Assembly: GCA_038867615.1 (NCBI GenBank)
Contig: JAWBYA010000001.1
Location: forward strand, 192,001-256,000
Origin: Sulfolobales archaeon
GTDB lineage: Archaea; Thermoproteota; Thermoprotei_A; Sulfolobales; AG1
Direction: 5' to 3'
DNA length: 64,000 bases
Within the stretch, counting starts at the first letter, position 1, and each line of letters begins with the position of its first letter. This document shows positions 30,306-62,165 of the stretch, piece after piece. A model generated the notes under the pieces. That model worked only from the letters and a program-made list of their open reading frames with translations. It did no database searches and was not told the origin of the DNA. A program made the translations under genes and the position numbers.

Positions 30306-30332
30306 GCAGTATCAAAGGGTGAGGCAGTGGAG

Positions 30333-30676
30333 CCGTAGCCAGCTGCTTCGAGTTTCATGATGGTTTATAGGGGTTGATATCGAATTTATCTCTGTGAAAC
30401 ATTATATAAGCTCTTATATTTCACTGGGATGCCCGCCCAACAATGAGGGTGGGATAGAGATCCAAGTGGGCGGGGTAAATGCAGAGAGATCCAGGATGTG
30501 GGGGTTTCCCCACAGCAATGAACCAGAGAAAATCTATGAGGGGGAGCTGTGGGTTGGGGTCACCTCGAACGGGTGGAGGCCAAGGATATGGGCTCCAATG
30601 AAAGGAGCCCTGAGGCCAATGAAGCCAAGGGCTGAGCGGTTGATATCAATATCAACCACAATGAAGCCCGAACCCC
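30333..30676 (+). mobile_element. family A non-autonomous element, copy A1 (IS607-like, omega-RNA-like cassette)
   Basis: Aligns end to end with 43505-43853 and 61905-62165 (reverse strand). CC at both ends, TATA at 30402-30409, hairpin GGTTGATAT-CA-ATATCAACC at 30638-30657. Confidence 0.85.
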
Positions 30677-31058
30677 GGGCTATTAGATCTTAAGCATGGA
30701 AAAACACTATAATCACGTCAGAGCGATATCTATACACTCCACCAACATGCTATGGTGTGGTTAAAGATCTCTCTATGGAAGATCTCCTAGCGTTGCTGGG
30801 ACCCTCGTGTAGCGAGTACTAATTAGTAAGAGGCATTCTGTGCAATGGTTCGTGGATATATTTTGAAACAGGGTTTGCATGGAAGCAAACTCATAGCCAG
30901 GTCGTATTAATAAAGCTCCTATAGATCTTTCTTCACAGCATTGGTGGAAAAACGATTCTCTCTAAGGCAATTCCACTCTATAGATAATTGCATTGATTTC
31001 TCATTCTTATTCAATATATTTATAAAGCCAGAGAAATTATTGTTCTGAGGCGACCTTT

Positions 31059-33734
31059 ATGGTGGGATTCGCGTATAGGTTGTTAATAATAGCTATGCTC
31101 GTGATAATTCTATCAACAGTGGCTGGGGCTCTAGGCATCTATGCCTATCCACAGGATAGCTATGGCTTGGGCTCTAAGGTAGATCCTGATGTTCTGAGAG
31201 AGCTCTCGAGATCGGGGAGTGCTAGGGTTCTCATAATGCTTGAGGATAGCTCTGCGCAGAGAATGATCTCTGACACGGGGATCAAAGGTCCAGGCCTTGT
31301 AAAAACGCTTATGGAGAGTGCATACGATTCCCAGAGAAGCATTATTGCTAGCATTGAGGCTTCGGGGGCTGTTATCGAGGATAGGCTATGGCTTGTCAAC
31401 GCGATAGTAGCTACTGTGGATCCCAACTCGCTGAGGATTATAGCTGGTCTCGATGGTGTTAAAGGTATTATCCTTGATAGGGTTTACAAGCTTGTAGATC
31501 CTGTGGAGAAGATCTATGACGTTATCTCTATAACGCCCCAGGATAGTGTGAGTAGACGTATAGTCCAGGCGGATCTCCTCGAATCTATGGGGATCACTGG
31601 CAGAGGGGTTAGGGTTGCGGTTATAGATACAGGGATCCAGGTTAACCACCCATGGCTGATCAGAAACGGAACCAGTGTTGTCACAGCAGAGTATGACGCC
31701 ACAAGAACAGGGGTTATTAATGTATGCACCTATCTAGGAATCCCAGCCGAGCATGGAACCCATGTTGCCGGGATAATAGCGAGCCAGGATACCACCCATA
31801 GGGGGGTTGCTCCCGGCGTTGATATATATAACGTGATCGTGTTCAGCAACATCACACAGTGCGAAGGAGCCTTTAGCTCGTGGATCATAAGGGGTATTGA
31901 GTGGTCCCTCCTAGGCCCTGATGGTAGGCCTGGTACAGGTGATGAGGCCAATATAATTAGCATGAGCCTCGGCGCCCTCGCGCCTCCGTGGTTTATGCAT
32001 TATGTTGCTAGATACGTTACTCTGCTAACAGCTATATCGAGAGCCGTTGATGCTGGTGCAACTGTTGTGATAGCCGCGGGGAATGACGGGCCTGGGGGGT
32101 ATACAATAAACTATCTATGCTATGCATCTGGGGTGATATGTGTTGGTGCCGTCGACTCCAGAGCTGGGAGTCTTTCGAGAACATCTGTGGCTATATTTAG
32201 TGCACGAGGCCCCATACCATTCGATATAGCAGCGCCCGATGTGGCTGCCCCTGGTGTTGGTATAATCTCATCCATACCTATAAACAGGACGGCTGCTTTT
32301 AGCGGAACCTCTATGGCTACACCCCATGTCTCTGGCGTAGCGGCTCTCTTAAAGCAGGCTCGCCCTGGATTGTCCCCCCTCGATATTAAGAGGGCTGTTG
32401 TTCAATCAGCCTCGCCAGCACCTCTATCAGATCTCTATGAATCTCCTAATCCGTTCGATCAGGGAACAGGTGTTGTTATGGCTTTAGACGCTCTTAATAA
32501 TCCTATTAGGCTCTCCTTCTCTGGCGGTGCTCTCCAGGGGCAGACCCAGACGCTGGTTATTCCGCCTGGGTCTAGTGCTTCTGCTGCTCTGCTTGTGAGT
32601 AATATTGGGAACACTACTGTTCCTCTCAATATATATCTAACGGATCTTGTGAGCTATATGGGGTCCGGTGTTCTGAGGAATAGCTCTGCTAGCATTTCCC
32701 AGCAATCCATATCATTATCACCTGGATCTAGCTCTCAGATCACGATCTCGATATCTGTCCCCTCTAGAACCCTTCCTGGAACCTATGCTGGGTATGTGAT
32801 CGCTTCTACAGGTACTCATGCTGCAAAACTACCAATAGTAGTTGTTGTCCCGGCAACCCTTAGGGAAGATGCTACGAGCTTCTCAGCCTCTATATCTACT
32901 ATAATAGGTGCTGGGCCTCCTGAGTGGGTTACTTTCAGGCTGTATGTCCCACAAGCTGTTGATGATCTTGTAAACATAGCGTCTTACTCCGACGGGCCTC
33001 TCCCACTAACGGTATACGCTATAACCCCGAGCAATAGGTTTGTAACCTCTGTTAGCGGTCTGCGTCTCCAAGAGAGGGGTGAATATATATTGATCCTAGA
33101 GATACCTGGGTTCTACGCCCTAGCAGGCCAGGCTATAATCACGCTCTCAGCACCAAAGGTCTTGCGAGGATTATCGCAGATAGAGACCCTAGCCTCCAAC
33201 GTCTCCTCACTTAGAAGTGGCTTAGAGAGTGTTAACGCATCACTCTCACAGAGATCACAGGCTCTTGAGTCGAGGCTCGAGAGCCTAGGATCTTCTGTTG
33301 AATCGATCAGATCTGCTGTACAAATACTCAACACAAGCCTTATCCTCTCACAGCAGCAGATAGATACCCTGGGCAAGAACCTAGCATCACTCGCACAGAC
33401 AGTAAGTGAAAACACAAGATCTATATCAAACCTAACAAGCTCCTTCCAAGGGTTCGTCAGCGATACCCAGAAAAGATTCTCAGACGTAGAGGGTAGATTA
33501 TCGAAGGCCGCAAGCGATATAGCAAGCCTTAGCGAGAGGTTCTCAAGCTTCCAGAACAGCGTGCAGCAAATGCTAGCAAGCCAGCAGAACTCCATAGCCG
33601 AGATAAGGAGTAACCTATCATCACTATCACAGAGCCTTGGAAACACAACAATAGTCTCAATAGCAGGTGTAGTGCTAGCCATAATCGGGATAGCGATAGG
33701 CGCGATAGCCTTCTCAAGAACTGGAAAGAAATAA
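31059..33734 (+). CDS. secreted S8 subtilisin-like protease with coiled-coil stalk and C-terminal membrane anchor
   Basis: Signal peptide, propeptide, triad VAVIDTG / HGTHVAG / GTSMATP, AAGN, a Ser/Gln-rich heptad region, then a TM helix and KK. Confidence 0.93.
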   Translation: MVGFAYRLLIIAMLVIILSTVAGALGIYAYPQDSYGLGSKVDPDVLRELSRSGSARVLIMLEDSSAQRMISDTGIKGPGLVKTLMESAYDSQRSIIASIEASGAVIEDRLWLVNAIVATVDPNSLRIIAGLDGVKGIILDRVYKLVDPVEKIYDVISITPQDSVSRRIVQADLLESMGITGRGVRVAVIDTGIQVNHPWLIRNGTSVVTAEYDATRTGVINVCTYLGIPAEHGTHVAGIIASQDTTHRGVAPGVDIYNVIVFSNITQCEGAFSSWIIRGIEWSLLGPDGRPGTGDEANIISMSLGALAPPWFMHYVARYVTLLTAISRAVDAGATVVIAAGNDGPGGYTINYLCYASGVICVGAVDSRAGSLSRTSVAIFSARGPIPFDIAAPDVAAPGVGIISSIPINRTAAFSGTSMATPHVSGVAALLKQARPGLSPLDIKRAVVQSASPAPLSDLYESPNPFDQGTGVVMALDALNNPIRLSFSGGALQGQTQTLVIPPGSSASAALLVSNIGNTTVPLNIYLTDLVSYMGSGVLRNSSASISQQSISLSPGSSSQITISISVPSRTLPGTYAGYVIASTGTHAAKLPIVVVVPATLREDATSFSASISTIIGAGPPEWVTFRLYVPQAVDDLVNIASYSDGPLPLTVYAITPSNRFVTSVSGLRLQERGEYILILEIPGFYALAGQAIITLSAPKVLRGLSQIETLASNVSSLRSGLESVNASLSQRSQALESRLESLGSSVESIRSAVQILNTSLILSQQQIDTLGKNLASLAQTVSENTRSISNLTSSFQGFVSDTQKRFSDVEGRLSKAASDIASLSERFSSFQNSVQQMLASQQNSIAEIRSNLSSLSQSLGNTTIVSIAGVVLAIIGIAIGAIAFSRTGKK

Positions 33735-33848
33735 ACGTAAGCAGCCATACCACATAGATCTCAGACCTCATAGATTTTTTCCCATAATCTCTAACCAAGA
33801 AAAACCTATACTTAAAACAAGCCTAATAGAACTATGATTAGAGAGCAG

Positions 33849-33926
33849 GGGCCCGTAGCTCAGCCAGGATAGAGCGTCGGCCTGCGGAGCCGGAGGTCCC
33901 GGGTTCAAATCCCGGCGGGCCCGCCA
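33849..33926 (+). tRNA. tRNA-Arg(GCG), CCA encoded
   Basis: Acceptor GGGCCCG/CGGGCCC-G-CCA, anticodon arm TCGGC-CTGCGGA-GCCGG, T-loop GGTTCAAATCC. Confidence 0.96.
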
Positions 33927-34028
33927 GGCTTCTCATCATAACCTGGTTAAAAGTTCTTGATATAATCTTAGGGATCTTATTCTTGATCCTCTAGGACTGT
34001 TTGTGTGATAGGTCGTCTTGGCGAGATT

Positions 34029-35537
34029 CTATAGGGTTTTTGTGATGTATTTCTTCTCTAGGTATGATAGGTAGCTCGTTGGATCTATATCGATTCCTAG
34101 TGATCTCTTTAGGAGTTCTTTTGGAGCGTATGTTGAGCCCCATCTATGGATCTTTATTCTAAGCCATTCTCTTATTGGGGCTAGGTTGGGGGTTGATATA
34201 TAGCTATACAGGCTGCCTAGATCCTTTTCCATCGCGTCTCTTATTTGCGCGGCGATTATTGTTCCCAGTGTGTATGTTGGGAAGTATCCGACGGATCCTT
34301 GGCTCCAGTGTATGTCTTGTAATACTCCTTCGGAGTGTTTCTTGGGCTTTATCCCTAGATATCTATCCATAAGATCGTTCCACATTTCGGGCATGTCGTT
34401 AACGTTGATCTCTCCCGAGACAGCTAGCCTTTCGATTTCGAATCTAACAGCTATGTGGAGGTTATATGTAACCTCGTCAGCATCGACTCTTATCAGGCTT
34501 GGCCTTACTATGTTGAAATATCTATAGAGATCCTCTGGATCCTGGGACCAGAGGTAGCCGTTAAGAACATTTCTATAGAGATTCTCTATGAATGGCCTGC
34601 TCTTACCTATCATTAGCTCCCAGAACCTTGACTGTGATTCGTGAATCCCGAGCGATGCTCCAGTGGCTAGGGGTGATGCTCTAAGCGACTCATCTATCTG
34701 GAGCTCGTAGAGAGCGTGACCATATTCGTGGATAACCGAGAGTATTGTTCTCCTGAAATCCTTCCCTTCGTATCTCGTTGTTATCCTTACATCCCATATC
34801 CCCATGGAGGATGTGAATGGGTGTGCAGACTCGTCCAGCCTTAATCTCTTGGGGTTATGACCGAGGATCTCTAGGATCTTTTTGTTAACGCTTCTCATAA
34901 TATTAACATCATAGGGCTCTTCCTCGAGTCTGTGGTATTGTGGAAAATACCCCTCGCTCATAATTCTATCTAGGATCGATTTTAATCCTGGGGCCAGTTT
35001 ATCCATGATGCTCTTAAACTCCCTTGTTGTCAAGCCCTCTTCGTAGAGGTCTAGGAGTGCGTCGTATGGGTGCTCCCTATATCCTAGATGGTCTGCTATC
35101 TCCCTCTCGAGACCGAAGATCCTGGCTAAGTAAGGCTTGAACAGATCATAGTCATTCTTAGCCTTAGCATTTCTCCAAACAACGCTTGCTTCCGATGTGA
35201 TTCTGCTGAGCTCCTCAACAATCCTCGGAGGGATCTTTGTATAGTAGTCAACAAGCCTTCTCAGAACCCTCACAACGCCTCTCTCATAGTCGTTGAGATC
35301 CTCAGCCTTCTCAGCCCTCTCCAGCTTCTCTATAAACTCTCTCCTCGTAATCATCTTCTGGATCATTAGGTTGATCCTGCTAATAGCAATAGACCTCTCA
35401 TAAACCCCGTCCTCAGGCATGTATGTCTCTATATCCCACCCCATGAGGGATAGTGCGTGTTGGAGCGACCATATATCTGTATACTCCTCAACAAGCTCTC
35501 TAACCTCCCTCCTAACAAAGACGTTCTCAGAACCCAA
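34029..35537 (-). CDS. thermostable carboxypeptidase, M32 family
   Basis: HPF, DVRITTRY, HEYGH, HESQS, IRVDADE and GYFPTY motifs. Start moved to a TTG downstream of a TTATAAA box. Confidence 0.95.
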   Translation of the reverse strand: MGSENVFVRREVRELVEEYTDIWSLQHALSLMGWDIETYMPEDGVYERSIAISRINLMIQKMITRREFIEKLERAEKAEDLNDYERGVVRVLRRLVDYYTKIPPRIVEELSRITSEASVVWRNAKAKNDYDLFKPYLARIFGLEREIADHLGYREHPYDALLDLYEEGLTTREFKSIMDKLAPGLKSILDRIMSEGYFPQYHRLEEEPYDVNIMRSVNKKILEILGHNPKRLRLDESAHPFTSSMGIWDVRITTRYEGKDFRRTILSVIHEYGHALYELQIDESLRASPLATGASLGIHESQSRFWELMIGKSRPFIENLYRNVLNGYLWSQDPEDLYRYFNIVRPSLIRVDADEVTYNLHIAVRFEIERLAVSGEINVNDMPEMWNDLMDRYLGIKPKKHSEGVLQDIHWSQGSVGYFPTYTLGTIIAAQIRDAMEKDLGSLYSYISTPNLAPIREWLRIKIHRWGSTYAPKELLKRSLGIDIDPTSYLSYLEKKYITKTL

Positions 35538-35572
35538 GCAGGGCACCAATTTTATAATGTATGGGGGTATAA

Positions 35573-35755
35573 GGGGTTTGGGTTTCATTGTTGCTGATAT
35601 TGCTTGATATCAACCGCTCTTCATAGATCCTCTCCTGCTCAGGCTGCTTTGGGATCTTCTCATCCTGGCTCTACCGTAAAATACATAGAACTTATATGAC
35701 GTTTTCGCAGAACCACGATTTGAACCCTCATGGAACTCGAAACGGTTAGCTATGA
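35573..35755 (-). mobile_element. family A element, short degenerate copy A4
   Basis: Both ends are recognisable (GGGGTTTGGGTTTCATTG...GATATCAACCGCTC and GCAGAACCACGA...CATGGAACTCGAAACGGTTAGCTAT) around a short unrelated interior. Confidence 0.7.
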
Positions 35756-35792
35756 GTGATAACATGCGGGTCGTTAAGTTTATAAGGGGGCG

Positions 35793-35812
35793 TATCTAGA
35801 TATATCTAGATA
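35793..35812. promoter_or_regulatory. perfect 20-bp palindrome, candidate PadR operator
   Basis: TATCTAGATA-TATCTAGATA between the TATA box (35779-35785) and the PadR start. Confidence 0.7.
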
Positions 35813-35816
35813 TATC

Positions 35817-36254
35817 TTGAGGAAGGGATTGACCAAGTTGTTGGTGCTCTACCTCCTGCTGAGAGACGGGGATCTTCATGGTTATGAGATTATGAAGAAG
35901 ATTAAGAAGGAGACTAAGGGTGCCATATCACCCAGCCCTGGGAATATATACCCAGCCCTCAGAGAGTTGGCGTCTAGGGGTTTTGTGAGTGTTAGGGTTG
36001 ATGATATGGGGAGGAAGATCTATAGCCTTACAGAGAGGGGAAGAGAGTTTATTATGGAGAAAAAGGGCTTCATAGAGGAGATGCTTAGAAGCAATCCCTC
36101 GGAGGTTATAGAGGTTCTGGAGGAGATACATGCTCTGATAGTGAGTATTATGAGTGCTTGGAGAAATATGGATGAGGCTTCTAAGAAGGCTTTTGTAGAG
36201 GATCTCAGGAGGCTTAGAAGATCCCTGGGGGTAGGGATCGGTGTGGGCGGTTGA
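35817..36254 (+). CDS. PadR family transcriptional regulator
   Basis: LHGYEIMK, SPGNIYPAL and RKIYSLTERG motifs. Confidence 0.93.
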   Translation: MRKGLTKLLVLYLLLRDGDLHGYEIMKKIKKETKGAISPSPGNIYPALRELASRGFVSVRVDDMGRKIYSLTERGREFIMEKKGFIEEMLRSNPSEVIEVLEEIHALIVSIMSAWRNMDEASKKAFVEDLRRLRRSLGVGIGVGG

Positions 36255-37230
36255 GGTAGAGGATCTGCATAAGATCTATCCTGGGGGTGTTAAAGCCCTT
36301 AGCGGTGTTTCTTTCAAAGTCTCTAAAGGGGAGGTTTACTCCCTCCTAGGACCTAACGGTGCTGGGAAAACAACTACTATGAAGATCATAGCGACACTGC
36401 TTAAACCAACCTCTGGGAGGGTTATGGTTATGGGTATAGATGTCGCCTCTAACCCCGATTCTGTTAGAAAGATCATTGGCTACGTACCCCAGGATCTCTC
36501 GGCGGACGATGAGCTGACAGGAATAGAGAACGTTGTTCTCCAGGCCAGGCTCTACGGAATCCCTAAGGATAAGGCTGTGAGGAGGGCTAGAGAGTTGCTA
36601 GAGATGGTTGGGCTTGGCGAGGCTGCTAACAGGCTTGTGAAGAGCTATAGCGGTGGTATGAGGAGAAGGCTCGAGCTGGCCATGGGGCTGGTTAACGAGC
36701 CCGAGCTATTAATCCTGGACGAACCCACACTAGGGCTTGATGTGCAGTCAAAACTATCGCTCTGGGAGCATATTGAAAGGCTTAGGAAGGAGAAGAAGGT
36801 CACCATATTGATGACAACACACTATATGGATGAGGCTGATAGGCTGAGCGATAGGATAGCGATAATAGATAGGGGAAAGATCGTTGCCGAGGGTTCTCCT
36901 CAGGAGCTTAAGGCGAAGGTGGGGGGCGATGTGATAATGATCAAGATCTCATCAGACCCCCTGAAGGTCGCTGAGAAGTTGAAAATGATCGATGGTGTTC
37001 GTGGTGTTGATGTTATTGAGGGTAATATCAGGATCAAGGTGAATGTTGCTGAGACAATGCTCCCAGAGATCCTTAAGGTTTTGGGCAGCGTTGATGGTAA
37101 GATCGAGAGTATATCGATCACGAGACCCACGCTGGACCAGGTTTTCATAGAATATACAGGAAGAATGTTTAGAGACGAGGAGCCTGGCGACTTTAGGAGG
37201 CAGATGATGATCTGGAGGAGGAAGAGATGA
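36241..37230 (+). CDS. ABC exporter ATP-binding protein (DrrA-like)
   Basis: GPNGAGKT, YSGGM, LDEPT and TTHYMDEA motifs. Confidence 0.93.
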   Translation: MWAVEVEDLHKIYPGGVKALSGVSFKVSKGEVYSLLGPNGAGKTTTMKIIATLLKPTSGRVMVMGIDVASNPDSVRKIIGYVPQDLSADDELTGIENVVLQARLYGIPKDKAVRRARELLEMVGLGEAANRLVKSYSGGMRRRLELAMGLVNEPELLILDEPTLGLDVQSKLSLWEHIERLRKEKKVTILMTTHYMDEADRLSDRIAIIDRGKIVAEGSPQELKAKVGGDVIMIKISSDPLKVAEKLKMIDGVRGVDVIEGNIRIKVNVAETMLPEILKVLGSVDGKIESISITRPTLDQVFIEYTGRMFRDEEPGDFRRQMMIWRRKR

Positions 37231-38075
37231 TGGGCGCACTATACACACTATACACGCTATATGAGAGGGAGATGAGGAAGTGGTTTAGGCAGAAGGTACA
37301 GCTAGTATTCATAGTAGTCATGCCCCTAATGTGGATGGGGCTTTTTGGGAAGAGCCTTAACTTCTCAGCACTACTCAGGATCCCAGATATACCTGGGGCT
37401 GAGCAGCTTAGAAACCAGATCCAGTTGCTAATAGAGGAGTACGTGATCAAGAGATACTTCGGTGGTTATGATTACTTCTCATTTTTCGTTATAGGGATGC
37501 TGAGCGTGTTCATACTATTCACAACGATGTGGAGCGGTATGAGCCTGGTTTTTGATAGAAGGCTTGGATATCTAAACAGATTCCTCGTAGCCCCTATACC
37601 GAGGTCGAGTATTGTTATGAGCAAGATCCTCTCCTCAGTAACAAGATCACTGATCCAGGTCACAGCACTACTCATAATAGCCCTAGCACTAGGACTAAGC
37701 CTAAAACCAGGCGTGGGTGTTATTGATATAGCGATCCTATATGGTGTTATAACACTGCTAGCACTCTCTTTTTCCTCAATATTCACAGCCATTGCTGTGA
37801 GGATAACAAGCCACGATCTAGTCATATCTATAGCAAACCTTGTCAACCTACCCCTAATGTTCACAAGCAACGCGATATTCCCAGTAGAGCAGATGCCCCA
37901 ATACCTACAAATAATAGCCAGAGCAAACCCCATAACACATGCTAATGTGATAACCAGGTATCACTTACTAGGGGTAGGGGATCCGGGATCTATGGTTACA
38001 TCCACAATATATATGGTTCTCTTCGCAACAGCATCTATAGCTATAGCGATCATAGCGTCGAGAAGGATCGAGTAG
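37227..38075 (+). CDS. ABC-2 type permease (DrrB-like)
   Basis: Six hydrophobic segments, DRRLG.L...LVAP and NPITH. Confidence 0.9.
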   Translation: MMGALYTLYTLYEREMRKWFRQKVQLVFIVVMPLMWMGLFGKSLNFSALLRIPDIPGAEQLRNQIQLLIEEYVIKRYFGGYDYFSFFVIGMLSVFILFTTMWSGMSLVFDRRLGYLNRFLVAPIPRSSIVMSKILSSVTRSLIQVTALLIIALALGLSLKPGVGVIDIAILYGVITLLALSFSSIFTAIAVRITSHDLVISIANLVNLPLMFTSNAIFPVEQMPQYLQIIARANPITHANVITRYHLLGVGDPGSMVTSTIYMVLFATASIAIAIIASRRIE

Positions 38076-38230
38076 CAACTCCATGTCATAGCCTGTATAG
38101 TAAGTTAAACACCTTTCAAAGATATAGCTAGCACTCAGAGATCTCCTAGTAAAGCTCCCCAGCAGAGAAACACGCTCTCTTAGTAAATAGTTAAAAAATC
38201 TTTATCGCGAGGCTATTAGCTTTTTCAGGA

Positions 38231-39439: not shown

Positions 39440-39447
39440 CTAGGTCT

Positions 39448-40770: not shown

Positions 40771-40907
40771 AACTCTGACACTATACGTAATATATAAGAA
40801 TTGCTATAGAAAATCTATAACAATAAGGAAAAAATATTAACCCATAGTTATAATACAGCTGGGACTAAGTTGAGTCAGCAATATAGACCTGATCTCTACG
40901 TTGTTCT

Positions 40908-41123: not shown

Positions 41124-41146
41124 TTCTTCTCATAATTTTATAGTGT

Positions 41147-42151: not shown

Positions 42152-42152
42152 T

Positions 42153-43407: not shown

Positions 43408-43970
43408 CTTTCAATTCTATAGTAGATCGACCCTGTGGGTTTGTTGATGACTGTTGAGCCCAGCTGCATAGGGCTTCTATCTATTGTGAGATCATTCCCT
43501 AGATGGGGTTCGGGCTTCATAGCGGTTGATTTTGCTTGATATCAACCGCTCAGCCCTTGGTTTCATAGGCCTCAGGGCCCCTTTCATTGGAGCCCTTATC
43601 ACTGGCCTCCACCCGTTCGGGGTGACCCCAACCCACAGCTTCCCTTCATTGCATTGCTCTGGTTCATTGCTGTGGGGAACCCCTGCATTTTGGATTTTAT
43701 TTAACCCGCCCCTCGGGTCTCTATCTCTATCCTCATTGTTGGGCGGCATCCCAGTGAAATATAAGAGCTTATATAAGGTTACATTACTGCAGAACTACGA
43801 GCTTAATATCAACCCCTATAAACCACCATGAAGCTCGAAGCAGCTGGCTACGGCTTGGAGCTATGCTCCCATCACCACCTAGAGTCAATATTGAGATCAA
43901 CTCATCACCAGAAACAATTTTAATCAGATATTATAAATCTTTACATAGGATATCAGTAAGAAAAACAGCC
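43408..43970 (-). repeat. family B unit B2, interrupted by element A2; repeat at 43408-43431
   Basis: Contains GTCGATCTACTATAGAATTGAAAG; the two halves rejoin at a GG when 43505-43853 is removed. Confidence 0.85.
43505..43853 (-). mobile_element. family A element, copy A2 (nested in B2)
   Basis: Full-length match to A1; GG at both ends and no longer target duplication. Confidence 0.88.
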
Positions 43971-46432: not shown

Positions 46433-46465
46433 CAGCTAGTATACCAAGAATCGCGGGAGCCGTGG

Positions 46466-51064: not shown

Positions 51065-51075
51065 CCCGCTCAAAA

Positions 51076-52394: not shown

Positions 52395-52467
52395 TCTGTT
52401 CCCTATATCTGTTGCCTTCTTATAAATATATTGTTTCTATGTGGATAGAGAGGTTTATTGATAGTTT

Positions 52468-53358: not shown

Positions 53359-53568
53359 TAAACAACCCGTAAAATACTCTATTCAAAGACTTATAAACCT
53401 TGAGCTGTTGGAAGGCCCGTGAGACTCTGGATATTTCCCATAGATCTATGCTGTCATTAAGATCCTAGCCAGAAGCACTGCCCAGGCTCCTTAGCGTCTC
53501 GCCAACCTTGTATTTGATACACCTAATGAGTATAGCTCGTTGTTATGAGCTTCTCTATTTTAGGACTA

Positions 53569-54570
53569 TTAGCTATGGTGATCCAGATATAATGGGATCT
53601 CTTTCACAAGATCTTTTGCTAAAGGTCTATCTATTACTAGTCTTAGGGTGTAGGTGTTCTCTCTATAGCCTATGAAGATCGTGTTTTCCTCTCCAAGGAT
53701 GCTCTTAATCTCTTTGGCTATATCCTCCATGTCGAGTGTTTTTTCGTGTGTTATTATGATGAGAGGTCTGCATATTGGTAGCTCGGTTTCGAAGGATCCT
53801 GATCTTCCTGAGTAGATCTTGAGTGGGGCTTTTCCGATAAAGCTTCCACGGATCTCTTCTCCAGCTCCTATCTCGACTCTATATGATCTTGCTCGTTTTA
53901 TCATTAGGGGTGCTATGCGTCCAATAACTCTGCATCCTATGAATTCTAGTCTGTAGAAGCATAGCTCTCCATCACCCTCAACCTTCTCATTAACAACCTT
54001 ATTGCTGGTAATCCTGGGTGTTATTGGTATGATGATTATATCTCTATACCTACCCCCAGAGATCTTCAGGATCTTTCCATCAAAAAACCCCTCATTGGTT
54101 GGGAAAATAGCCAGGATATTGCTAACCCCCAGCTCCTTCAAATCATACCCTGTAGAAACCTCAGAGATCTTCTCAAAAATCTTGGTAGTAATATACCTAG
54201 TCGTGGTGTCATGAGCCTCACCACCGATAGAGATCGATATAATATTTCTGCTAATCTCGCCCTTAATGGTGGCTCTATAGAGCTCTAACAGCTCTCCCGA
54301 GGGTAGAGTGAGCCTGGAGATCTTCAATTTATCGGAGAACTCTCTTAGAGCTTCATTCCTCTCTGCTGTGAGCAGTATCCATTTAATAAGCAGTAGAAGC
54401 CCGGCTCCCCATATAAGTATAGCTATATAGGTTACTAGAGGGTTGCTGATTATCCGTAATACTACAACTGTGGTAATTATCAATATAACTATAGAGAGAA
54501 TACTACAGAATAAAGGCATCACAAGATCTTTCTCAACAGTGATTACGAGAGGATCACGATCGCTGGTCAA
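53569..54570 (-). CDS. hypothetical protein with two N-terminal TM helices
   Basis: 333-aa Ile-rich ORF with a beta-rich C-terminal region ending LRLVIDRPLAKD. Confidence 0.7.
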   Translation of the reverse strand: MTSDRDPLVITVEKDLVMPLFCSILSIVILIITTVVVLRIISNPLVTYIAILIWGAGLLLLIKWILLTAERNEALREFSDKLKISRLTLPSGELLELYRATIKGEISRNIISISIGGEAHDTTTRYITTKIFEKISEVSTGYDLKELGVSNILAIFPTNEGFFDGKILKISGGRYRDIIIIPITPRITSNKVVNEKVEGDGELCFYRLEFIGCRVIGRIAPLMIKRARSYRVEIGAGEEIRGSFIGKAPLKIYSGRSGSFETELPICRPLIIITHEKTLDMEDIAKEIKSILGEENTIFIGYRENTYTLRLVIDRPLAKDLVKEIPLYLDHHS

Positions 54571-54744
54571 GGCTGCTAAATGCTATTAAAGAAAAGCCCT
54601 TAAAAATCTTCGAGAGGTCATATTCATAAACTGTTTGCTATCTCTGATACCCTTGATGTTTATCGATATTGTTTCGTTATCCGAGATCTTAACACTGAGA
54701 TGGGATAGGTTGTAAGACTTCAGCCTCTTAATGGTTGTAGTATT

Positions 54745-55995
54745 CTAGCCGTTCTCGGCTTTCTTTACTTTTAAAATGATCCCCTCCATCGATACTACGA
54801 CTACCTTCGATCCTGACGGTATCTTGCCACTGACAGAATATGCTGTCCATTCCTCGCCTGCTACGTAGACCACACCGGGGGTGTTTTCGTCTATATCTGT
54901 CTTTGCAAGACCTATCTTTCCAACAATAAGCTCTTCCGGCTTGTATCTCTTCATCCTCACAGCCTGCCCTGCTTTATATGCTATGAAGCCTACGAGCCCG
55001 CCAAATCCTAGTATGAGGGCTGCTACCCCTGCTAGTTCTAGGCTTAGGGTTCCCGGGGGTCTCTGGAGTATTAGCATTGATATCCCTGCTGCTATCAGGA
55101 CTATGCCTGCTATTCCGAAGGCGCCGAAGCCTGGTGTTGTGACCTCTATTAGTGTTAGCACTACTCCTGAGAGTAGGAGGGTTATTACCAAGAGGTCTGG
55201 GGGTACGAGGCTCATGCCATAGAGGGCTAGCAGGATTAGGAGGGCGCCTGCTATCGCGTATCCCTGAAAACCTGTGGTGAAGATCTCTGCTAGTATTAGG
55301 TAGACTCCTATTGTTAGTATGAGCGAATATATCAGTGGATCAGATAGTAGAGAGACTATTCCCTCAAAGAAATCCTTACTATATCTAGACCCAATCACGA
55401 GACCCTCTTTATCGAGCACCTCCTCAAGACTTGAGGCTGGAGATGCTATGCCTATCGAGACAGCTTCCCTCTCAGTCAGTGTTAGGCTCTCCTTAACAAA
55501 TCTCTCAGCGATCTCCACCTTAGCCGGGTCGTCAAAGGCTCTTTGAGCCAAAGCCCTGAATCTCGAGGCAACATAGCTCACAGTCTTCTCATCAGAGGGT
55601 ATAGGTTTGGCAGCCCCTATACTGCTCCCAGGCCCCATATAGATCTTTCCACACGCTATCGCAACCATAGATGCTGCCGAGGCAGCCTTCCCACCCGGGG
55701 GTATGTATGCAACACACCTAGCACCTGAGCCAACCAATATCTCGGCTATCCTGTCAGCAGATGCTACATAGCCTCCATAGCTATCTATGATGAGTGTAAT
55801 CGACATGCTATTATCAAGAGCGCTCTTCACAGCCCTCTCTACCAGGGAGACCATCCCGCCGTCGATGTTACCAATAACATCGACTACTATGGTGGACTGC
55901 TTAGAGGCGCTTTGGGCTAATACAGCTATATGGATTGATGTGGTGAGAATGAATAACACCGTGACTAGCGTTATTAAAGCACTATATCCCCTCAT
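54745..55995 (-). CDS. nfeD: NfeD family membrane-bound protease (ClpP-like domain, TM domain, OB domain)
   Basis: IDSYGG, AASAA, GSSIGAA.P and GVVYVAGEEWTA motifs. Confidence 0.92.
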   Translation of the reverse strand: MRGYSALITLVTVLFILTTSIHIAVLAQSASKQSTIVVDVIGNIDGGMVSLVERAVKSALDNSMSITLIIDSYGGYVASADRIAEILVGSGARCVAYIPPGGKAASAASMVAIACGKIYMGPGSSIGAAKPIPSDEKTVSYVASRFRALAQRAFDDPAKVEIAERFVKESLTLTEREAVSIGIASPASSLEEVLDKEGLVIGSRYSKDFFEGIVSLLSDPLIYSLILTIGVYLILAEIFTTGFQGYAIAGALLILLALYGMSLVPPDLLVITLLLSGVVLTLIEVTTPGFGAFGIAGIVLIAAGISMLILQRPPGTLSLELAGVAALILGFGGLVGFIAYKAGQAVRMKRYKPEELIVGKIGLAKTDIDENTPGVVYVAGEEWTAYSVSGKIPSGSKVVVVSMEGIILKVKKAENG

Positions 55996-56024
55996 AAGAG
56001 TGTCCAGTAGTAATAAGTAAGGGG

Positions 56025-56981
56025 ATGTATAAAACCATAATTGTGGGGATCAGTATGATCTGTTCTAAGGCTCCTGGGAAGATAATCCTGTTTGGAGAGC
56101 ACTTTGTAGTGAAAGGGGTTCCGGGTATTGGCATGGCTGTCAGCTCCTATGCAAAGGCATGTGTTGAGGAAAGCGATAAGAACACGGTTTTATCGAAACA
56201 GCTGGGCCTGGTTTATGACGAGGCTGAGGGGGTAGGTTTTGGGGGTGGCTTTGAAGTTATATTCAAGCTCATCGCCTCTATGGGTTGCTCTAAGAGGGTG
56301 AGGGCTTATATAGATTCCTCTATATTTATGGGCTCTGGGATGGGTTCTTCAGCAGCATCCTCGGTTGCTCTGATCCATGCTCTCATGAGGCTCTGCGGTT
56401 TAGACCCCTCTAAGGAGGTTGTGTCTAGGATAGCCTTTGAGGCTGAGAAGGCTGTCCACGGAAAACCTAGCGGTATTGATAATACCCTAGCAACCTATGG
56501 GGGGCTACTTTACTACAGATCCGGGGTTTTTGAGAGGATAGATATCAAATGGCCCGAGGAGTATTCGTTGCTTGTTGTGAACACAGGGATCCATAGAGAG
56601 ACAGGGGTTGTGGTTAAAGACGTTCTAAACCTCTATGAGAGGAGGAGAGGGGTTTTAGAACATATATACAAGGCTGCGGAAGAGCTTGTAAACCAAGCCC
56701 TAGCAATGCTGAAGAAAGGGGATTTCGAGAACCTGGGGGAGTTGATGAATATAAACCAAGGATTACTATATACTGTGAATGTTTCATGCCCGAAATGTGA
56801 GGAGATAATCTGGCTCCTCAGGAGAAACAAAGCCCTAGGGGTCAAGCTAAGCGGTGCTGGGAGGGGAGGGATCATAATAGCCCTATATAGAAAGAAAGAT
56901 CTAGAGGGTGTGAGGCAGCTACTAAAAGAAGAGAGCCTAGTAGTAAGCCTCGACGAGCAAGGGGTTCTTTCAATTTCGTAG
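56025..56981 (+). CDS. mvk: mevalonate kinase
   Basis: APGKIILFGEH, GMGSSAA, HGKPSGID and KLSGAGRGG motifs. Confidence 0.95.
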   Translation: MYKTIIVGISMICSKAPGKIILFGEHFVVKGVPGIGMAVSSYAKACVEESDKNTVLSKQLGLVYDEAEGVGFGGGFEVIFKLIASMGCSKRVRAYIDSSIFMGSGMGSSAASSVALIHALMRLCGLDPSKEVVSRIAFEAEKAVHGKPSGIDNTLATYGGLLYYRSGVFERIDIKWPEEYSLLVVNTGIHRETGVVVKDVLNLYERRRGVLEHIYKAAEELVNQALAMLKKGDFENLGELMNINQGLLYTVNVSCPKCEEIIWLLRRNKALGVKLSGAGRGGIIIALYRKKDLEGVRQLLKEESLVVSLDEQGVLSIS

Positions 56982-56990
56982 TAAATCGGC
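56967..56990 (-). repeat. degenerate CRISPR-like repeat overlapping the mvk stop codon
   Basis: GCCGATTTACTACGAAATTGAAAG (minus strand) is 19/24 identical to the B2 repeat. Confidence 0.65.
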
Positions 56991-57163
56991 GAAACAGTCC
57001 TCGGTGTATAAATAATCGGCTGGGTTTGGGACTTATAAAAACAAAAGATCCCTTGGGTCGTTTTAGAAGATTCTGTGGAAGAAGAGATAAAGATACTAAG
57101 GCTATTGGGTTTTGCCATCATTAAAACTAAGGATCAAATACGAAGTTCCGCATAATATAGTAG

Positions 57164-60145
57164 TTAAGTCGATCTACTAAAGAATTGGGAGAGATCGCGG
57201 TAGAGCTCTACAAGCATCTCCTCCACATCCTCTCTCCTCAAGCTCGGTTGCAGGGCTTTTAACACCATGGTATCTAGCTCGATCCTTTTTTCCTGGGGCG
57301 GGAAGTATTGTTCCGGCAGTCTTTTTAGCTCGGAGTGTTTGAACATATCGAAGATCTCTGAGAGAGTGTTGATCTTACCTTCTGGAAGTGATGTGATATC
57401 AAGGACTGGGAGGAGTTTCCAGTGGGTTATTTTAAGACTGCTCCACGCACCCTCGGTCTCCTCCCTGTGGGCTATGATGCTCATAATCCCCCATGTGGTG
57501 TTAAGCCATAGGCATAGCGCTTTGAGCTTTCTATCATCGTTGCCTGTTTTGAGTCTAACGGCATAGAATATGTTTGAGAGTACAGGTTTTGTAACATAGA
57601 TCGCTGTTACATGGGCTGTGTTGAGCCTTATTCTCTCTGGGACGAGGAGGCTGCTTGCAAACCTCTCAAATATTCTTCTCGCTTTCCCATCCTTCGGAAG
57701 GATCCGGGCGTTAGGATCGGTCTGTAACCGGGTTCTCAACTCTTCTCCCCCACCATATAGGGCTGGCAGAGATCCTGGCGCCTCTGCAGCTCTTCTAAAG
57801 CTATCGTGGAATTGATGCCTGTCAATCCCGATCACCGCTATCTCTCCAAGCCTCTTAACCGGGATCCTTATCTCTCTAGCTCCAAGCCTTATACTACCCT
57901 CTAGCAGCTCTAACACATAGTTTGAGAGCCGCGGGTTTGTGAATGCTAATAGCTTTCCCCAGTTATCCAGGTGCTTTAGAAGCAATCGCCTCGGGATCGT
58001 ATATACAATGCCACAAGATCTTCCAGCCTCTACATTGCTGCCTAGGCTGCTGCTCCCTAGCGTTATATCTATCTCAGCGGCTTTCCCACACCTATCTATG
58101 ATTTCATGTGCCAGCCATACTCCCTCAAGTGCTGTTTTAGGTTTTCTGACCAGGTTTGCTATGCATGTTCTCTCATCCTCAACATGCTTATCAACCCTCC
58201 TTGCGATCACGAGGCACTCGCTCAGGTCTGTAGATTCGCTAAAACCATAGCCTTCTTCGGGATCGTTGCTAACAATAACATATTCTAGGTGGAATCTCGA
58301 TGCTAAGAACGATCGTGCGAGGAACCAGCTTATCCCTGACAAGAGATTCCTGGGTAGAACAAACGCTATCCTACCCCCCTCTTTTACCAGCTCCCCAGCA
58401 ATGTATAGGAAGAGGAGCCCTTCACCAGCCTGTCCAATCTCTAGGAAGGTTTTTACACCTTCCCCGCTGAGTGAGGTTTCTAGTTCTTTCAGGAAAGCCT
58501 TTCCCTCGCTAGTCTCGGATAACATGTATCTCACATATTCTCTAAGTCTCTTGTAGGATCTGAGGAGCTTCTCCCTAGCATGCTTATCCACTATAAAGCC
58601 GAAGAGCCCTGATTCTTTCCTGCCGCCTCTTCCAGTTGCTCTGGTGAAGGGAGGGTTCATTATGATTAGGTCAAACCTTTCTGGAAGATCTATTATTTCT
58701 TCCTTCCTAGAGGCAGAGATCCTGATTATACCTCTGCTCCTCGGAGGGTTTGCAAGAATCCTCTGCACTAGATCCAGGCTTCCCATAGATACAGATCCGT
58801 TAGGGCCTATTCCAAGCGGTGCTGTGTAGATATTCATGCTTTGTGGAGAAGCTTCGGGATTATGGAGGGCAAGGATCGTGGTTGTTATATATGTTGCGAA
58901 TCTAAGGGAATCCAACCCCCAGAGGGTTTTCTCCAAAACAGTCCTGTGGAAGCCCTCAACATCGACTTCCAACCCTTCTTTCAAGCGATCTCTGGTATAG
59001 AGGTATAGAAGACCATCGTAAGAGGCTGAGAGAAGAGTTCCCGAGCCGCATGCTAGATCGGCTATTCTGAAATTATCAAGAGAGCTGAGGCTCTGCCACG
59101 CCTGGTTTGGGGTTGTAAGGGCTAGTCTGGCAAGCAGGTACGATGAAGGTATGCTTGTAAAATATGTTGCTAGGTTCTTCCTAACAGCCCAGCTCCCTAC
59201 TATTGTATGGTATATCTTGCCCGCGAAATCGCGTCTCAACAAGGTCTTGTTGCTTGCTATGCTGCTTGCAAAGCCGATCAGATCCATGATCGCTTGTTGA
59301 GCGTCTATAGGGAGTTTTTCAACGATCTCCTTGGCAATGCTGAAGATCGGTTGGTTGTTTATTTTAACAATACTATCGAAGGCTTTCTCAAGGGCTGGTA
59401 GGCCGTTTCTCCCTCCTACCAGGCTTTCCAGGGGTTTGAGGCCGTGTTTGGCTCTTATACTCTCATAGAGTATGGCGCTTAGGAGGATAGCTAGGGCTGC
59501 TTTACCATAGATCATTTCCTTGATATCCTCTACCTCTCCTATGGAGATGCCGTAGAGTTTATGGAAAACATTGTAGAGCTCTCTACATATAGATAGATCT
59601 CTATCCACAGAGCCTAGGGTTTTGATTAGCCGGTTGATAAGCTTCTCTATCTCCTCCTCGGCTTTTCTAATCATTTCCTCCAAAACCAGGTGCTGGATCG
59701 CTTGGTCTATGCTATCCCTTAGAAGGGGTACATCGACCCTAAGCCACCCTTGCGTGAGCAGCTCTCGCGGAGATTCCTTAGATCTCTTCTCCAAGAAGCG
59801 CGATAGATTTCTCGTCACATCTTCTCCGGGTATGAAGAACCTAGCCCTCAATACAGATCTTTCCAAGATCTCCTCGATCTCATCCTCCGCAACTTCCTCA
59901 GGAAAAGCCTGTCTATCATACCAGATAGCTACGGCTATGTCGCAAAGCCCGCTCTCAAGCCTCTCTATCGCATTTCTTTCAGCAACACGAGCTTCGTAGG
60001 ATCCTTCGAGGGCTATTCTGAAACCCTTATACAGAAGAACTATGCCTGTAGAACCATCTATATATATCTCAACCCTCTCTTTAAAACCATGCCTCCCAAG
60101 CAGCCGGGCTAAGGTCCTGCTAACCCTACCTTCATCGATACCCAA
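57164..60145 (-). CDS. type IIG-like fused restriction-modification protein / large N6-adenine methylase
   Basis: DLACGSG, NPPFTR, C-terminal TRD-like region and an N-terminal segment with IALEGS. Confidence 0.85.
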   Translation of the reverse strand: MGIDEGRVSRTLARLLGRHGFKERVEIYIDGSTGIVLLYKGFRIALEGSYEARVAERNAIERLESGLCDIAVAIWYDRQAFPEEVAEDEIEEILERSVLRARFFIPGEDVTRNLSRFLEKRSKESPRELLTQGWLRVDVPLLRDSIDQAIQHLVLEEMIRKAEEEIEKLINRLIKTLGSVDRDLSICRELYNVFHKLYGISIGEVEDIKEMIYGKAALAILLSAILYESIRAKHGLKPLESLVGGRNGLPALEKAFDSIVKINNQPIFSIAKEIVEKLPIDAQQAIMDLIGFASSIASNKTLLRRDFAGKIYHTIVGSWAVRKNLATYFTSIPSSYLLARLALTTPNQAWQSLSSLDNFRIADLACGSGTLLSASYDGLLYLYTRDRLKEGLEVDVEGFHRTVLEKTLWGLDSLRFATYITTTILALHNPEASPQSMNIYTAPLGIGPNGSVSMGSLDLVQRILANPPRSRGIIRISASRKEEIIDLPERFDLIIMNPPFTRATGRGGRKESGLFGFIVDKHAREKLLRSYKRLREYVRYMLSETSEGKAFLKELETSLSGEGVKTFLEIGQAGEGLLFLYIAGELVKEGGRIAFVLPRNLLSGISWFLARSFLASRFHLEYVIVSNDPEEGYGFSESTDLSECLVIARRVDKHVEDERTCIANLVRKPKTALEGVWLAHEIIDRCGKAAEIDITLGSSSLGSNVEAGRSCGIVYTIPRRLLLKHLDNWGKLLAFTNPRLSNYVLELLEGSIRLGAREIRIPVKRLGEIAVIGIDRHQFHDSFRRAAEAPGSLPALYGGGEELRTRLQTDPNARILPKDGKARRIFERFASSLLVPERIRLNTAHVTAIYVTKPVLSNIFYAVRLKTGNDDRKLKALCLWLNTTWGIMSIIAHREETEGAWSSLKITHWKLLPVLDITSLPEGKINTLSEIFDMFKHSELKRLPEQYFPPQEKRIELDTMVLKALQPSLRREDVEEMLVELYRDLSQFFSRST
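57168..57191 (+). repeat. degenerate CRISPR-like repeat overlapping the last codons of the methylase gene
   Basis: GTCGATCTACTAAAGAATTGGGAG; its first 20 nt are 19/20 identical to the B repeat. Confidence 0.7.
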
Positions 60146-60387
60146 TCCGTATCCCCAACCACATTTATCCGGTATCCTGTTACATGGATGACGCGCTCTG
60201 CCTAATTAAAATAGATATTCGAGGCTTCTTAGCTATTATAGGTAGCAAGAGAAATCTATATAAATAGCATAGCTATCAGAGTTGGTGCAGATAGCGAAAC
60301 AGGTGAGATGCTTAGGTGATGGTATTCGATTAGACCCTAACGATCTCGTGGCTTAAATCTCTAAGGACGCTTTAGCGATAAACAAGA

Positions 60388-61845
60388 GTGATCGAACTAT
60401 GGCTAGGTATTTATCATGTATTTTTATATTTTTCTGCTAACTACCGGTTGGTGTTCTTGTTGAGCCCGAACTATGATGAGATCTCTAGAAAAGCTGTTCG
60501 GTATATTGAGGATAACTATAACAGGTATATAGATCTTCTTGGAAGCCTTATTGAGTATAAAACAGTGGCTGCCTGGGGAGGAGACGATATGGCTAGGTGT
60601 GCAGATTACCTTGCATCAATTCTCAGGGAGAGGGGTTTCAAGACCCAGATTAAAAGTGGTGGTGGGCATCCAGTGGTTCTAGCCGAGGTTGGTTCAGGCT
60701 CTAGGAGCGTGCTTATATATAACCACTATGACGTCCAGCCCCCCGATCCTGTTGAGCTCTGGGAGAGTGATCCTTTTAAGCTGTCTAGGAGGGGGGATTA
60801 TCTGTTCGCGAGGGGTGTTGCTGATAATAAGGGTAATATTGCTGCTAGGATCGGCGCGATCGACGCGATCATTGATAGCATCGATAAGCTCGACCTCAAG
60901 ATCAAGTTCTTTATAGAGGGCGAGGAGGAGATCGGATCACCAACCCTTGGGAGGGTTATTCAGGATAATAAGGAGTGGATAAGATCTGATGGGGGGATAT
61001 GGGAGACGGGATATATTAGAAGAGATGATAGGCTCGGCATAAGCCTTGGCTTCAAGGGCATGCTATATATAGAGATTATTCTCAAAGGGGCTTCGAGGGA
61101 TGTTCACAGCGGTAATGCCCCCCTGGTTCCCAACCCTGTGTGGAGGATGGTTAGGCTGCTCTCTCTCCTCAAGGATGAGCATGGCAGGATCTATGTTCCA
61201 GGCTTCTACGACGACATAGATCCCGAGTTCGTGAGGGCTGGTGAAGAGCTTGTGAAGAAAATGGATACAGCAGAGCTTGAGGAGATGATGAAGGATCTAG
61301 GGCTTAAGAGCTTCGTCGGGGGTGTAAGCGGTTACGAGGCTCTCAGGAAACTCCACCTAGAACCATCGCTAAACGTCTCAGGCCTCTACTCCGGCTATAC
61401 TGGTAAGGGTTCAAAAACAATAGTACCCTCGATAGCTGGGGCTAAGATCGATATAAGACCAGTCCCAGGCCAAGACCCAGAGAAGATCCTCGGCAATCTC
61501 AAGAAATATCTGAAGGAGAACGGCTTTGAAGACGCCCAGATCGTTGTGCACAGCATGTATAGATCTGGATATACAAAGCCCGGAGAGGCAATAGTGAGGG
61601 CTACGGTTAACGCAGCTATAAAAGCCTATGGGAAAGAGCCGTCTGTATCTCCTCTCTCCGGAGGCTCAGGCCCTATGTATTACTTCACCAACATTGCTGG
61701 AACCCCAATGAGCGGGGCTGGTGTAGGGTATTACGGCTCGAAAGCCCATGCACCTAACGAGAACATAAGGGTTAGGGATTTCGTTAACGGGATGAAACAC
61801 TTCGCCCTAACCCTTATAGAGTTCTCAGCCCTAGCTAGGAAGTAG
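60388..61845 (+). CDS. M20 family metallopeptidase/deacylase (true start probably near 60460)
   Basis: YNHYDVQP, ARGVADNKG, EGEEEIGS, DVHSG and AHAPNE motifs. Confidence 0.93.
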   Translation: MIELWLGIYHVFLYFSANYRLVFLLSPNYDEISRKAVRYIEDNYNRYIDLLGSLIEYKTVAAWGGDDMARCADYLASILRERGFKTQIKSGGGHPVVLAEVGSGSRSVLIYNHYDVQPPDPVELWESDPFKLSRRGDYLFARGVADNKGNIAARIGAIDAIIDSIDKLDLKIKFFIEGEEEIGSPTLGRVIQDNKEWIRSDGGIWETGYIRRDDRLGISLGFKGMLYIEIILKGASRDVHSGNAPLVPNPVWRMVRLLSLLKDEHGRIYVPGFYDDIDPEFVRAGEELVKKMDTAELEEMMKDLGLKSFVGGVSGYEALRKLHLEPSLNVSGLYSGYTGKGSKTIVPSIAGAKIDIRPVPGQDPEKILGNLKKYLKENGFEDAQIVVHSMYRSGYTKPGEAIVRATVNAAIKAYGKEPSVSPLSGGSGPMYYFTNIAGTPMSGAGVGYYGSKAHAPNENIRVRDFVNGMKHFALTLIEFSALARK

Positions 61846-61904
61846 AGTCTCCACCGGATCCTAGTTTTTCCCAGCAAGGTTTTTGGTAAGCCGTGATCCT
61901 ATGT

Positions 61905-62165
61905 GGGGTTCGGGCTTCATTGCGGTTGATATTGATATCAACCGCTCTTCCCTTGGCTTCATAGGCCTCAGGGCTCCTTTCATTGGGGCCCATATCCTGG
62001 ATCTCTCTGTATTTACCCCGCCCACTCGGGTCTTTATTTTTTACCCTCATTGTTGGGCAGCATCCCATAGAATAACAGGGCTTATATAATGTTCATTACT
62101 GCAGAACTACGGGTTTAATATCAACCCCTATAAACCACCATGAAACCTGAAACAGCCGGCTATGG
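61905..62165 (-). mobile_element. family A element, internally deleted copy A3
   Basis: Both ends match A1 and A2; about 85 nt is missing between two AGGAT(G/A)TGGG motifs. Confidence 0.85.

Follow-up and report, generated by a model that had tools for sequence, protein, structure and literature searches.

Can a transposon copy that carries no genes act as the gene for a guide RNA? This question is raised by Family A, a set of four short, related elements (A1-A4) in a 64,000-nucleotide stretch of the genome of a Sulfolobales archaeon (GenBank assembly GCA_038867615.1, contig JAWBYA010000001.1, positions 192,001 to 256,000 of the forward strand), hereafter called the window. An initial annotation, made from the sequence alone, proposed that the elements descend from IS607-family transposons and that each of them is a stand-alone cassette for an omega RNA, the RNA that carries the guide for a TnpB protein. 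From the analysis of the window, the whole assembly and related genomes, we conclude that Family A very probably consists of IS607-derived non-autonomous elements, and we put the probability that its complete copies act as omega-RNA genes at roughly 55%.

Family A and its tnpB-bearing parent

The four copies align with one another along their full lengths, at the positions and on the strands that had been assigned to them. Their parts are as follows.

30333..30676, + strand: A1, a complete 344-nt non-autonomous element; its first or last CC is common with the target
30332..30334, + strand: left-flank G and core CC (GCC) of A1, candidate target and target-adjacent motif (TAM), from the flank logo and empty sites
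30364..30371, + strand: TATA-like box in the left end of A1, at the tnpA promoter position of full IS607 relatives; putative function
30402..30409, + strand: TTATATAA box of A1, inside a 13-mer also found upstream of the parent's tnpB
30432..30474, + strand: 5' hairpin of A1 (CCCGCCCA...TGGGCGGG), with homology to the tnpB segment that encodes the zinc ribbon
30487..30676, + strand: omega-RNA-like scaffold of A1, with homology to the final ~190 nt of the tnpB frame plus the right end
30578..30617, + strand: outer and inner helix of A1 with a box C/D-like (kink-turn-like) internal loop, marked by covariation
30636..30659, + strand: right-end hairpin of A1, 17 nt short of the boundary; both sides are changed in 5 of its 11 pairs
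30677..30696, + strand: putative guide of A1 (right flank), placed by analogy with TnpB systems
43505..43853, - strand: A3, a complete 349-nt copy
43776-43769, 43746-43705, 43697-43505 and 43549-43522, - strand: TATA box TTATATAA, 5' hairpin, scaffold and right-end hairpin of A3
43485..43504, - strand: putative guide of A3 (right flank)
61905..62165, - strand: A4, a member of a 261-nt deletion class, with the TATA box TTATATAA at 62089-62082
61885..61904, - strand: would-be guide of A4 (right flank)
35573..35755, - strand: A2, a 183-nt remnant, with the box TCATATAA at 35699-35692
35553..35572, - strand: would-be guide of A2 (right flank)

The assembly (G000; 2.22 Mb in 28 contigs, rated 94% complete) holds a parent for these elements. 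At locus L002 (G000:C1:11133-12700) the left and right ends of Family A flank one 457-aa frame, P0001 (L002 874..2247, which is G000:C1:11373-12743), that runs past the right end into the flank. Aligned to A1 and A3, the parent shares with them the left end, the 13-mer TATA region, the zinc-ribbon hairpin and the last ~190 nt of tnpB; the short elements retain five parts, namely ~55 nt of the left end, the TTATATAA 13-mer, the hairpin of the zinc-ribbon segment, the last ~190 nt of tnpB and the right end. P0001 scores 52 bits against Pfam PF07282 (cut-off 26.3) and 63.9 against the NCBIfam model guided_TnpB, which is under the cut-off of 100. A zinc ribbon is present, and the AlphaFold model of the protein (mean predicted local distance difference test score, pLDDT, 73) gives full-length matches to Cas12f, Fanzor2, ISFba1 TnpB and ISDra2 TnpB with E values of 9e-13 to 1.5e-5. 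A sequence search against solved structures gave C-terminal matches only (E ~2e-4). Residues 379-457, which overlap the part held in common with the Family A scaffold, have a pLDDT below 50.

Homologues of P0001 are found in 29 of 41 related genomes, and the named relatives come from metagenome-assembled genomes (MAGs) of Zestosphaera, Ignisphaera, Desulfurococcaceae and Sulfolobales. The tnpB-only copies of G000 and of the related genomes G002 and G003 occupy different loci. Over codons 1-375, the ratio of nonsynonymous to synonymous substitution rates between P0001 and its G002 and G003 counterparts is 0.13, and thus this TnpB is under purifying selection. Across 121 family members the RuvC site shows no variation at Asp207 and Glu287, and the third canonical Asp is replaced by Gln in 112 (Gln365 in P0001) and by His in 9. 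A second tnpB copy of this genome, in locus L001, is broken, and a second tnpB-only IS607 relic (L081, G000:C6:23300-25600) has a 462-aa frame that is 43% identical to P0001 and the same kind of right terminus. Behind the left end of L081 there is a stop-containing remnant of the 5' end of tnpA; the corresponding remnant at L002 is weak.

In the closest full elements, from four other genera, tnpB follows a serine transposase with an N-terminal MerR-like helix-turn-helix (HTH) and a C-terminal catalytic domain; Family A itself is without genes. Eight neighbouring frames were chosen from the tnpB loci of 11 relatives and scanned with Pfam. Four of them, directly upstream of and overlapping tnpB in L008-L011 (four other genera), encode proteins of 200-209 aa with MerR-HTH and Resolvase domains (PF00239, E 2e-25 to 3e-23), and the adjoining tnpB genes are 60-63% identical. 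The other four frames are unrelated (one has a CBS domain, one a HEPN domain, and two are without a Pfam match). At L009 and L010, where both ends were read, the left end has G/CC...TTTCAT followed by the TATA-like GTTTATAAGG, and the right end has a hairpin followed by CTATGAAACCCRAACCCC. The IS607 ancestry given by the initial annotation is thus borne out by tnpA(S)-tnpB elements with the same ends in four other genera together with the tnpB-only parent here; the autonomous full-length parent that it asked for exists in those four genera and was not found in this assembly.

A TnpA(S) query had no match in G000 and had matches in all five genomes of the same genus, the closest being fragments in G005 (69-83% identity). 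The only IS607-type transposase trace recovered from the assembly with tblastn is a frameshifted relic at C7:65739-65976 (-), which is 42-44% identical over residues 28-111 (E 5e-4). The sole resolvase-domain gene of the assembly, on contig C23, has the catalytic domain first and the HTH last; since this domain order is opposite to that of IS607 transposases, it lacks the IS607 architecture.

Family A is spread over the genome. A1 matches further full copies at 77-90% identity (E 1e-72 to 1e-132), and its chained blastn matches comprise 50 left ends and 48 right ends with many partial copies; a stricter search with short ends gave 39 left and 44 right ends. The window copies fall into three deletion classes, one being the complete A1 and A3 and the others A4 and A2. 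A4 retains the left end, the TATA box, the 5' hairpin and the last ~95 nt. A segment of ~90 nt between two AGGAT repeats is missing from it, and with this segment helices one to three and the outer helix's 5' strand. This deletion is common to at least three genomic copies, and a separate 260-nt deletion class has at least five. A2 retains the left end, an imperfect right-end hairpin and the terminus, with approximately the last 60 nt of the RNA body. A 255-nt subfamily with the same ends lacks the second TATA box (for example G000:C3:251059-251313, C9:25415-25650 and ends on C21, C9 and C13). Contigs C1, C9, C13, C21 and C22 terminate in Family A repeats. Because several contigs end inside repeats, the numbers of copies given here are minimum values, and the assembly could have missed a copy that carries tnpA. 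Most of the public DNA runs in which the region is present are metagenomes of hot springs. Contigs from four of the runs break within the repeat; over the element they show only a depth to which contigs of other copies add, and loose ends lie at 30332.

The insertions lie mostly in intergenic DNA: long open frames cover 87% of the genome, yet of 38 right flanks, taken 5-45 nt out, they contain 10. With respect to neighbouring genes, 19 copies are co-directional, 16 are convergent, eight lie within called genes and one is at a contig end; promoter donation to neighbouring genes was rejected, there being no orientation bias. Judged from their translations, the genes adjoining one family copy encode a proteasome subunit and a ribosomal S7-like protein, both of archaeal type. 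A 519-aa frame at 34029-35588 (-) of the window has its first listed start at an ATG within A2 (the ATGAA motif of the right end); probably the true start is further in, or the 5' end of the gene was changed by the insertion of A2. An antisense 101-aa frame in A3 (43526..43831, +) is regarded as spurious, and A1 has no counterpart of it.

Ends, core and empty sites

Of 39 left ends, the 31 starting with [CT]C[AG]T[AG]G were used for the left flank logo, and of 44 right ends the 38 terminating in A[AG]CC[CT]C form the right-end set. In the left flank, 29 of 31 copies have G at position -1, none has it at -2 (0/31), and 16 of 31 have A at -3; G at -1 is also found in 10 of 11 copies of G003. The last four bases of the element are CCCC, with the boundary directly after them, in all 38 filtered right ends, and +1 is T in 20. 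In the window the left junction reads G/CC in A1, A3 and A4 and c/TC in A2, and the orthologous full copy in G002 reads G/TC. Read in the sense of tnpB, the core is CC, complementary to the usual GG. Terminal inverted repeats are lacking, as neither end is an inverted copy of the other.

Five clean empty sites are available, and none of them has a target duplication beyond the shared dinucleotide. A4 is absent in G003, where the joint consists of the flanking G, CC and the exact right flank. A1 is also absent in G003, with CC at the joint, A in place of the G before it and two substitutions after it. Three copies of G003 are absent in G000, and their joints are CA, CT and an irregular 4-nt CGAT. 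These three come from 20 loci of G003 that were compared with G000, of which L039 and L046 matched on one flank only and L045 and L051 were left out. At L035, L037, L038 and L043 the alignment covers the whole locus at 96-100% identity, and therefore G000 holds the same copy. Among the 11 examined at the junction, three were clean empty sites, four had unalignable bases (29 in L050, 25 in L042, 197 in L040 and 40 in L049) and four were occupied in G000 too. A4 is also missing from G002 by BLAST, and the A3 site could not be aligned in G002 or G003. The A2 site exists in three states: a 339-nt copy in G002, the 183-nt remnant in G000, and 12 nt (GCTTTTCAACCC) between intact flanks in G003, which may be a footprint of excision or repair.

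An empty site thus reads HGCC followed by the flank and an occupied right junction reads CCCC followed by the same flank. Because G stands to the left of the element and the right end is CCCC, position -3 of the tetramer separates the empty from the occupied state. Most of what the initial annotation described at the ends holds on a genome-wide view: the left-flank G is confirmed by the logo, no longer target duplication occurs at any clean empty site, the TTATAT box near the left end is present as TTATATAA in A1, A3 and A4 and as TCATATAA in A2, the right-end hairpin precedes a sharp boundary, and the four guide starts agree with the sequence. The G/CC junction that it assigned to A1-A3 stands for A1 and A3 and extends to A4; A2 departs from it.

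With neither terminal inverted repeats nor a target duplication, Family A is not a classical miniature inverted-repeat transposable element (MITE); its likeness to MITEs is limited to small size, lack of genes and multiple copies. The absence of terminal inverted repeats and of a duplication, together with a perfect hairpin 17 nt from the right end and tnpB-only parents of the kind typical of the IS1341 group, would fit palindrome-associated transposable elements (PATEs) of the IS200/IS605 type, which are moved as single strands by a Y1 HUH transposase. We regard this origin as highly improbable. The Y1 transposase family PF01797 has no match in the assembly (the control was positive in 6 of 14 genomes), the closest full elements have a serine transposase, and the tnpB-only elements retain, next to their left ends, traces of the 5' part of tnpA(S), clear in L081 and weak in L002. 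Moreover, the joints share a dinucleotide and the conserved left flank is one base rather than a 4-5-nt target.

The RNA-like body and its possible use

The right part of the element was examined in an alignment of 35 sequences comprising MITE copies, tnpB-only parents and full elements of other genera, on which a six-helix structure was tested. In this structure 91.8% of the cells are paired versus 40-50% with the partners slid; the structure was drawn from the same 35 sequences, so the slid control flatters it, and the double-sided changes are independent of that. Sixteen of 34 pairs are changed on both sides, and the cells changed on both sides number 65 versus 21.8 ± 3.9 in shuffles, with none of 500 shuffles as high. 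Most of these changes lie in three elements: outer helix, inner hairpin and right-end hairpin. In the 5' hairpin the six outer pairs are kept, and changes are mostly to G-U. The distant sequences were needed, as RNAalifold on whole elements of close copies gave a covariation term of just -1.19. The first two alternative helices are indistinguishable, and a pseudoknot of GGGUUGGGG with the 3' CCCGAACCCC was dropped because two U positions vary freely and their partners do not. The omega-RNA-like body proposed by the initial annotation therefore has a counterpart in a covarying structure of the right ~190 nt, which overlaps the 3' end of tnpB.

In the same columns of all 35 scaffolds, positions 30578-30617 of A1 comprise a covarying GGCC/GGCC stem, a 3-nt bulge, an invariant GA opposite CUGA and a covarying 7-bp hairpin. 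The internal loop between the outer and inner helices resembles what we take to be the consensus of a box C/D kink-turn, and this candidate could be a site for L7Ae.

Rfam searches of the whole window at gathering thresholds and of A1 at E-value thresholds gave only two tRNAs and chance-level matches. One of the tRNA matches (window 451-550) spans 100 nt versus 71 positions of the model, which suggests an intron-bearing archaeal tRNA gene.

How such a body might be used can be outlined as follows. In the history proposed here, a tnpA(S)-tnpB element lost tnpA and became a tnpB-only element, of which L002 is the one intact copy left, and further internal deletions gave elements of 180-360 nt. 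Besides both ends, these keep the TATA box, the 5' hairpin from the zinc-ribbon coding region and, as the omega-RNA scaffold, the final ~190 nt of tnpB. A serine transposase acting in trans would move these elements by recombination at the two-base core, without target duplication. In the complete copies, transcription from the TATA box would yield an RNA of ~250 nt that passes through the right end, with the right flank as guide. Archaeal promoters place the start some distance beyond the TATA box; here the TTATATAA box lies ~70 nt inward from the left end, and the start is predicted ~22-25 nt downstream of it, near 30431 in A1. The TnpB of the genome would load the RNAs of the mini-elements in trans and, after excision, may recognise the empty joint, HGCC plus a guide match, and not the occupied CCCC, in which case GCC would act as the TAM. 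The descent and the transposition chemistry of Family A are well supported, and a guide-RNA function is likely for the complete copies. The claim that each copy is a guide cassette may hold for A1 and A3, which have a complete scaffold, and fails for A4 and A2, which lack most of it.

Several observations weigh against guide-RNA function. The scaffold-deleted classes (with at least five and at least three copies, and the 255-nt subfamily) multiplied too, and therefore the spread of the family did not need scaffold RNA. The copies diverge by 10-25%, no IS607-type serine transposase was found in the 94%-complete assembly, and the family may be extinct in this genome. The TATA core is unchanged in 33 of 33 aligned copies, but with a single master as the source of them all, this counts as weak evidence. 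An exact CC is found in just two of the five empty sites, and the flanking G could come from the preference of the transposase alone. With Gln or His in place of the third RuvC Asp in all 121 members, cleavage by this TnpB is not assured. No RNA run is among the public runs listed as holding the region.

Some of these points suit a simpler explanation, in which the copies are passive relics: plain IS607 fragments from which no guide RNA is made and in which the structured right part was kept only because the transposase needs the right end's hairpin and subterminal motifs or because all copies come from one master. The multiplication of the scaffold-deleted classes, the age of the copies (75-90% identity) and the lack of an orientation bias toward neighbouring genes all agree with this. 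So does the motif WATGAR, which occurs 4.4 times per copy on the sense strand versus 0.53 in shuffles, and in two reading frames in the parent; it may be a subterminal transposase-binding motif of the kind that is typical, in multiple copies, of IS607 ends, or part of the RNA. Serine recombinases, on the other hand, bind double-stranded DNA, and the double-sided changes that keep four helices over 190 nt are better explained by RNA. Furthermore, where just one side of the 5' hairpin has changed, the result is mostly a G-U pair; this hairpin was retained in the short elements, which have lost the 79 nt that separated it from the scaffold; and the contrast of G at -1 with C in the right end mirrors a tested rule of TnpB discrimination. 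On balance, we judge the passive explanation unlikely, although it keeps appreciable weight.

If the RNAs are made and loaded, the outcome at the target may still be other than a cut. The available part of a census of TnpB proteins describes six large branches with an altered RuvC-III, some of them archaeal or linked to serine recombinases, in which activity was untested and many of which were deemed probably active (PMC10691335). As far as the consulted text of a second report goes, Cas12m2, which has a non-canonical triad, retained binding and lost cutting (PMC10442227). An Asp-Glu-Gln/His TnpB might in the same way bind or nick without cutting double-stranded DNA and serve as a roadblock, a regulator or an aid to recombination. 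The Gln or His in every member, next to the invariant Asp207 and Glu287 in a protein under selection, is in keeping with this. A further point is that, of 38 would-be guides, nine match the genome at a second place with no more than one mismatch in 16 nt, where ~2 are expected; at these sites the similarity stops after 16-20 nt, and none is preceded by GCC. Guides as regulators of other loci were rejected on these grounds. One second-site pair matches the reverse complement of the flank of another copy. Against a non-cutting TnpB, the family stayed mobile, with its tnpB-only copies at different loci, and is linked to a transposase in other genera, as for working homing; the nearby conserved Glu361 or Asp363 could supply the missing carboxylate, and the authors of the census regard many such variants as active. 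That the RNAs are made and loaded by a TnpB that does not cut seems improbable to us.

Within the reading of the complete copies as omega-RNA genes, a bolder form can be stated. One selected Asp-Glu-Gln TnpB would be served in trans by dozens of promoter-equipped guide genes, each aimed at its own empty site, possibly with a kink-turn that recruits L7Ae and with an effector that may bind or nick. Such an arrangement would be intermediate between selfish homing and an RNA-guided DNA-binding system that the host could use. We consider it a long shot.

Relation to known systems

If the complete copies are expressed, they would provide a natural test of the use of omega RNA in trans at high temperature, with a C-rich candidate TAM (GCC) and a compact thermophilic TnpB whose unusual active site bears on a whole archaeal clade. 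If they are not, Family A is just one more transposon family in decay. Homing by TnpB has been demonstrated in bacteria, with IS605 and with a single IS607 element, and CboIStron of Clostridium botulinum is to our knowledge the only IS607 element dissected so far. PATEs of IS200/IS605 are reportedly known from Haloquadratum. A literature search of main texts, supplements aside, returned no study of an archaeal IS607 TnpB and no natural gene-less IS607 derivative that bears a promoter and carries an omega RNA.

IS605-type PATEs of Geobacillus were studied by Meers et al., and in the part of that report at hand they are said to "often encode" omega RNAs that need TnpB in trans (PMC10055086). Like Family A, PATEs are gene-less derivatives that retain transposon ends. 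They differ in that a Y1 transposase moves them as single strands at a 4-5-nt motif, whereas Family A has a serine-transposase descent and a dinucleotide core. Archaeal "IS200/605" MITEs described in BMC Genomics in 2013 are gene-less elements of 340-570 nt without inverted or direct repeats, present in 2-17 copies (PMC3852290). They come from halophiles and methanogens, and the accessible portion of that article links no serine transposase, promoter or guide RNA to them (PMC3852290). IS607, IS1535 and ISC1926, so far as the cited account covers them, resemble Family A in having no terminal inverted repeats or target duplication, in their subterminal motifs and in the dinucleotide that termini and target share (PMC6188088). 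Their DNA sequences are unrelated to Family A, which is known only from MAGs of hot-spring Thermoproteota.

The closest comparison is with CboIStron. According to the available text of the preprint, its transposase and TnpB both specify TGGG, its right end is TCGG so that position -3 tells self from non-self, mismatched dinucleotides are tolerated in integration products, and its omega RNA acts in trans (bioRxiv 10.1101/2023.11.20.567912). Family A differs in its archaeal host, in its CC core and candidate TAM of HGCC versus TGGG, and in the lack of a group I intron; it also has natural gene-less copies with their own TATA box and a TnpB with Gln at the third RuvC position, and here it is known from sequence alone. 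In common with the Family A lineage, CboIStron has a serine transposase with TnpB, a two-base core in both ends and target, and no target duplication. Its TAM is the target motif including the core, and its right end departs from the TAM at -3, as HGCC and CCCC differ here. Its omega RNA ends at the right end with the right flank as guide, and a gene-less mini-element derived from it is mobilised in trans.

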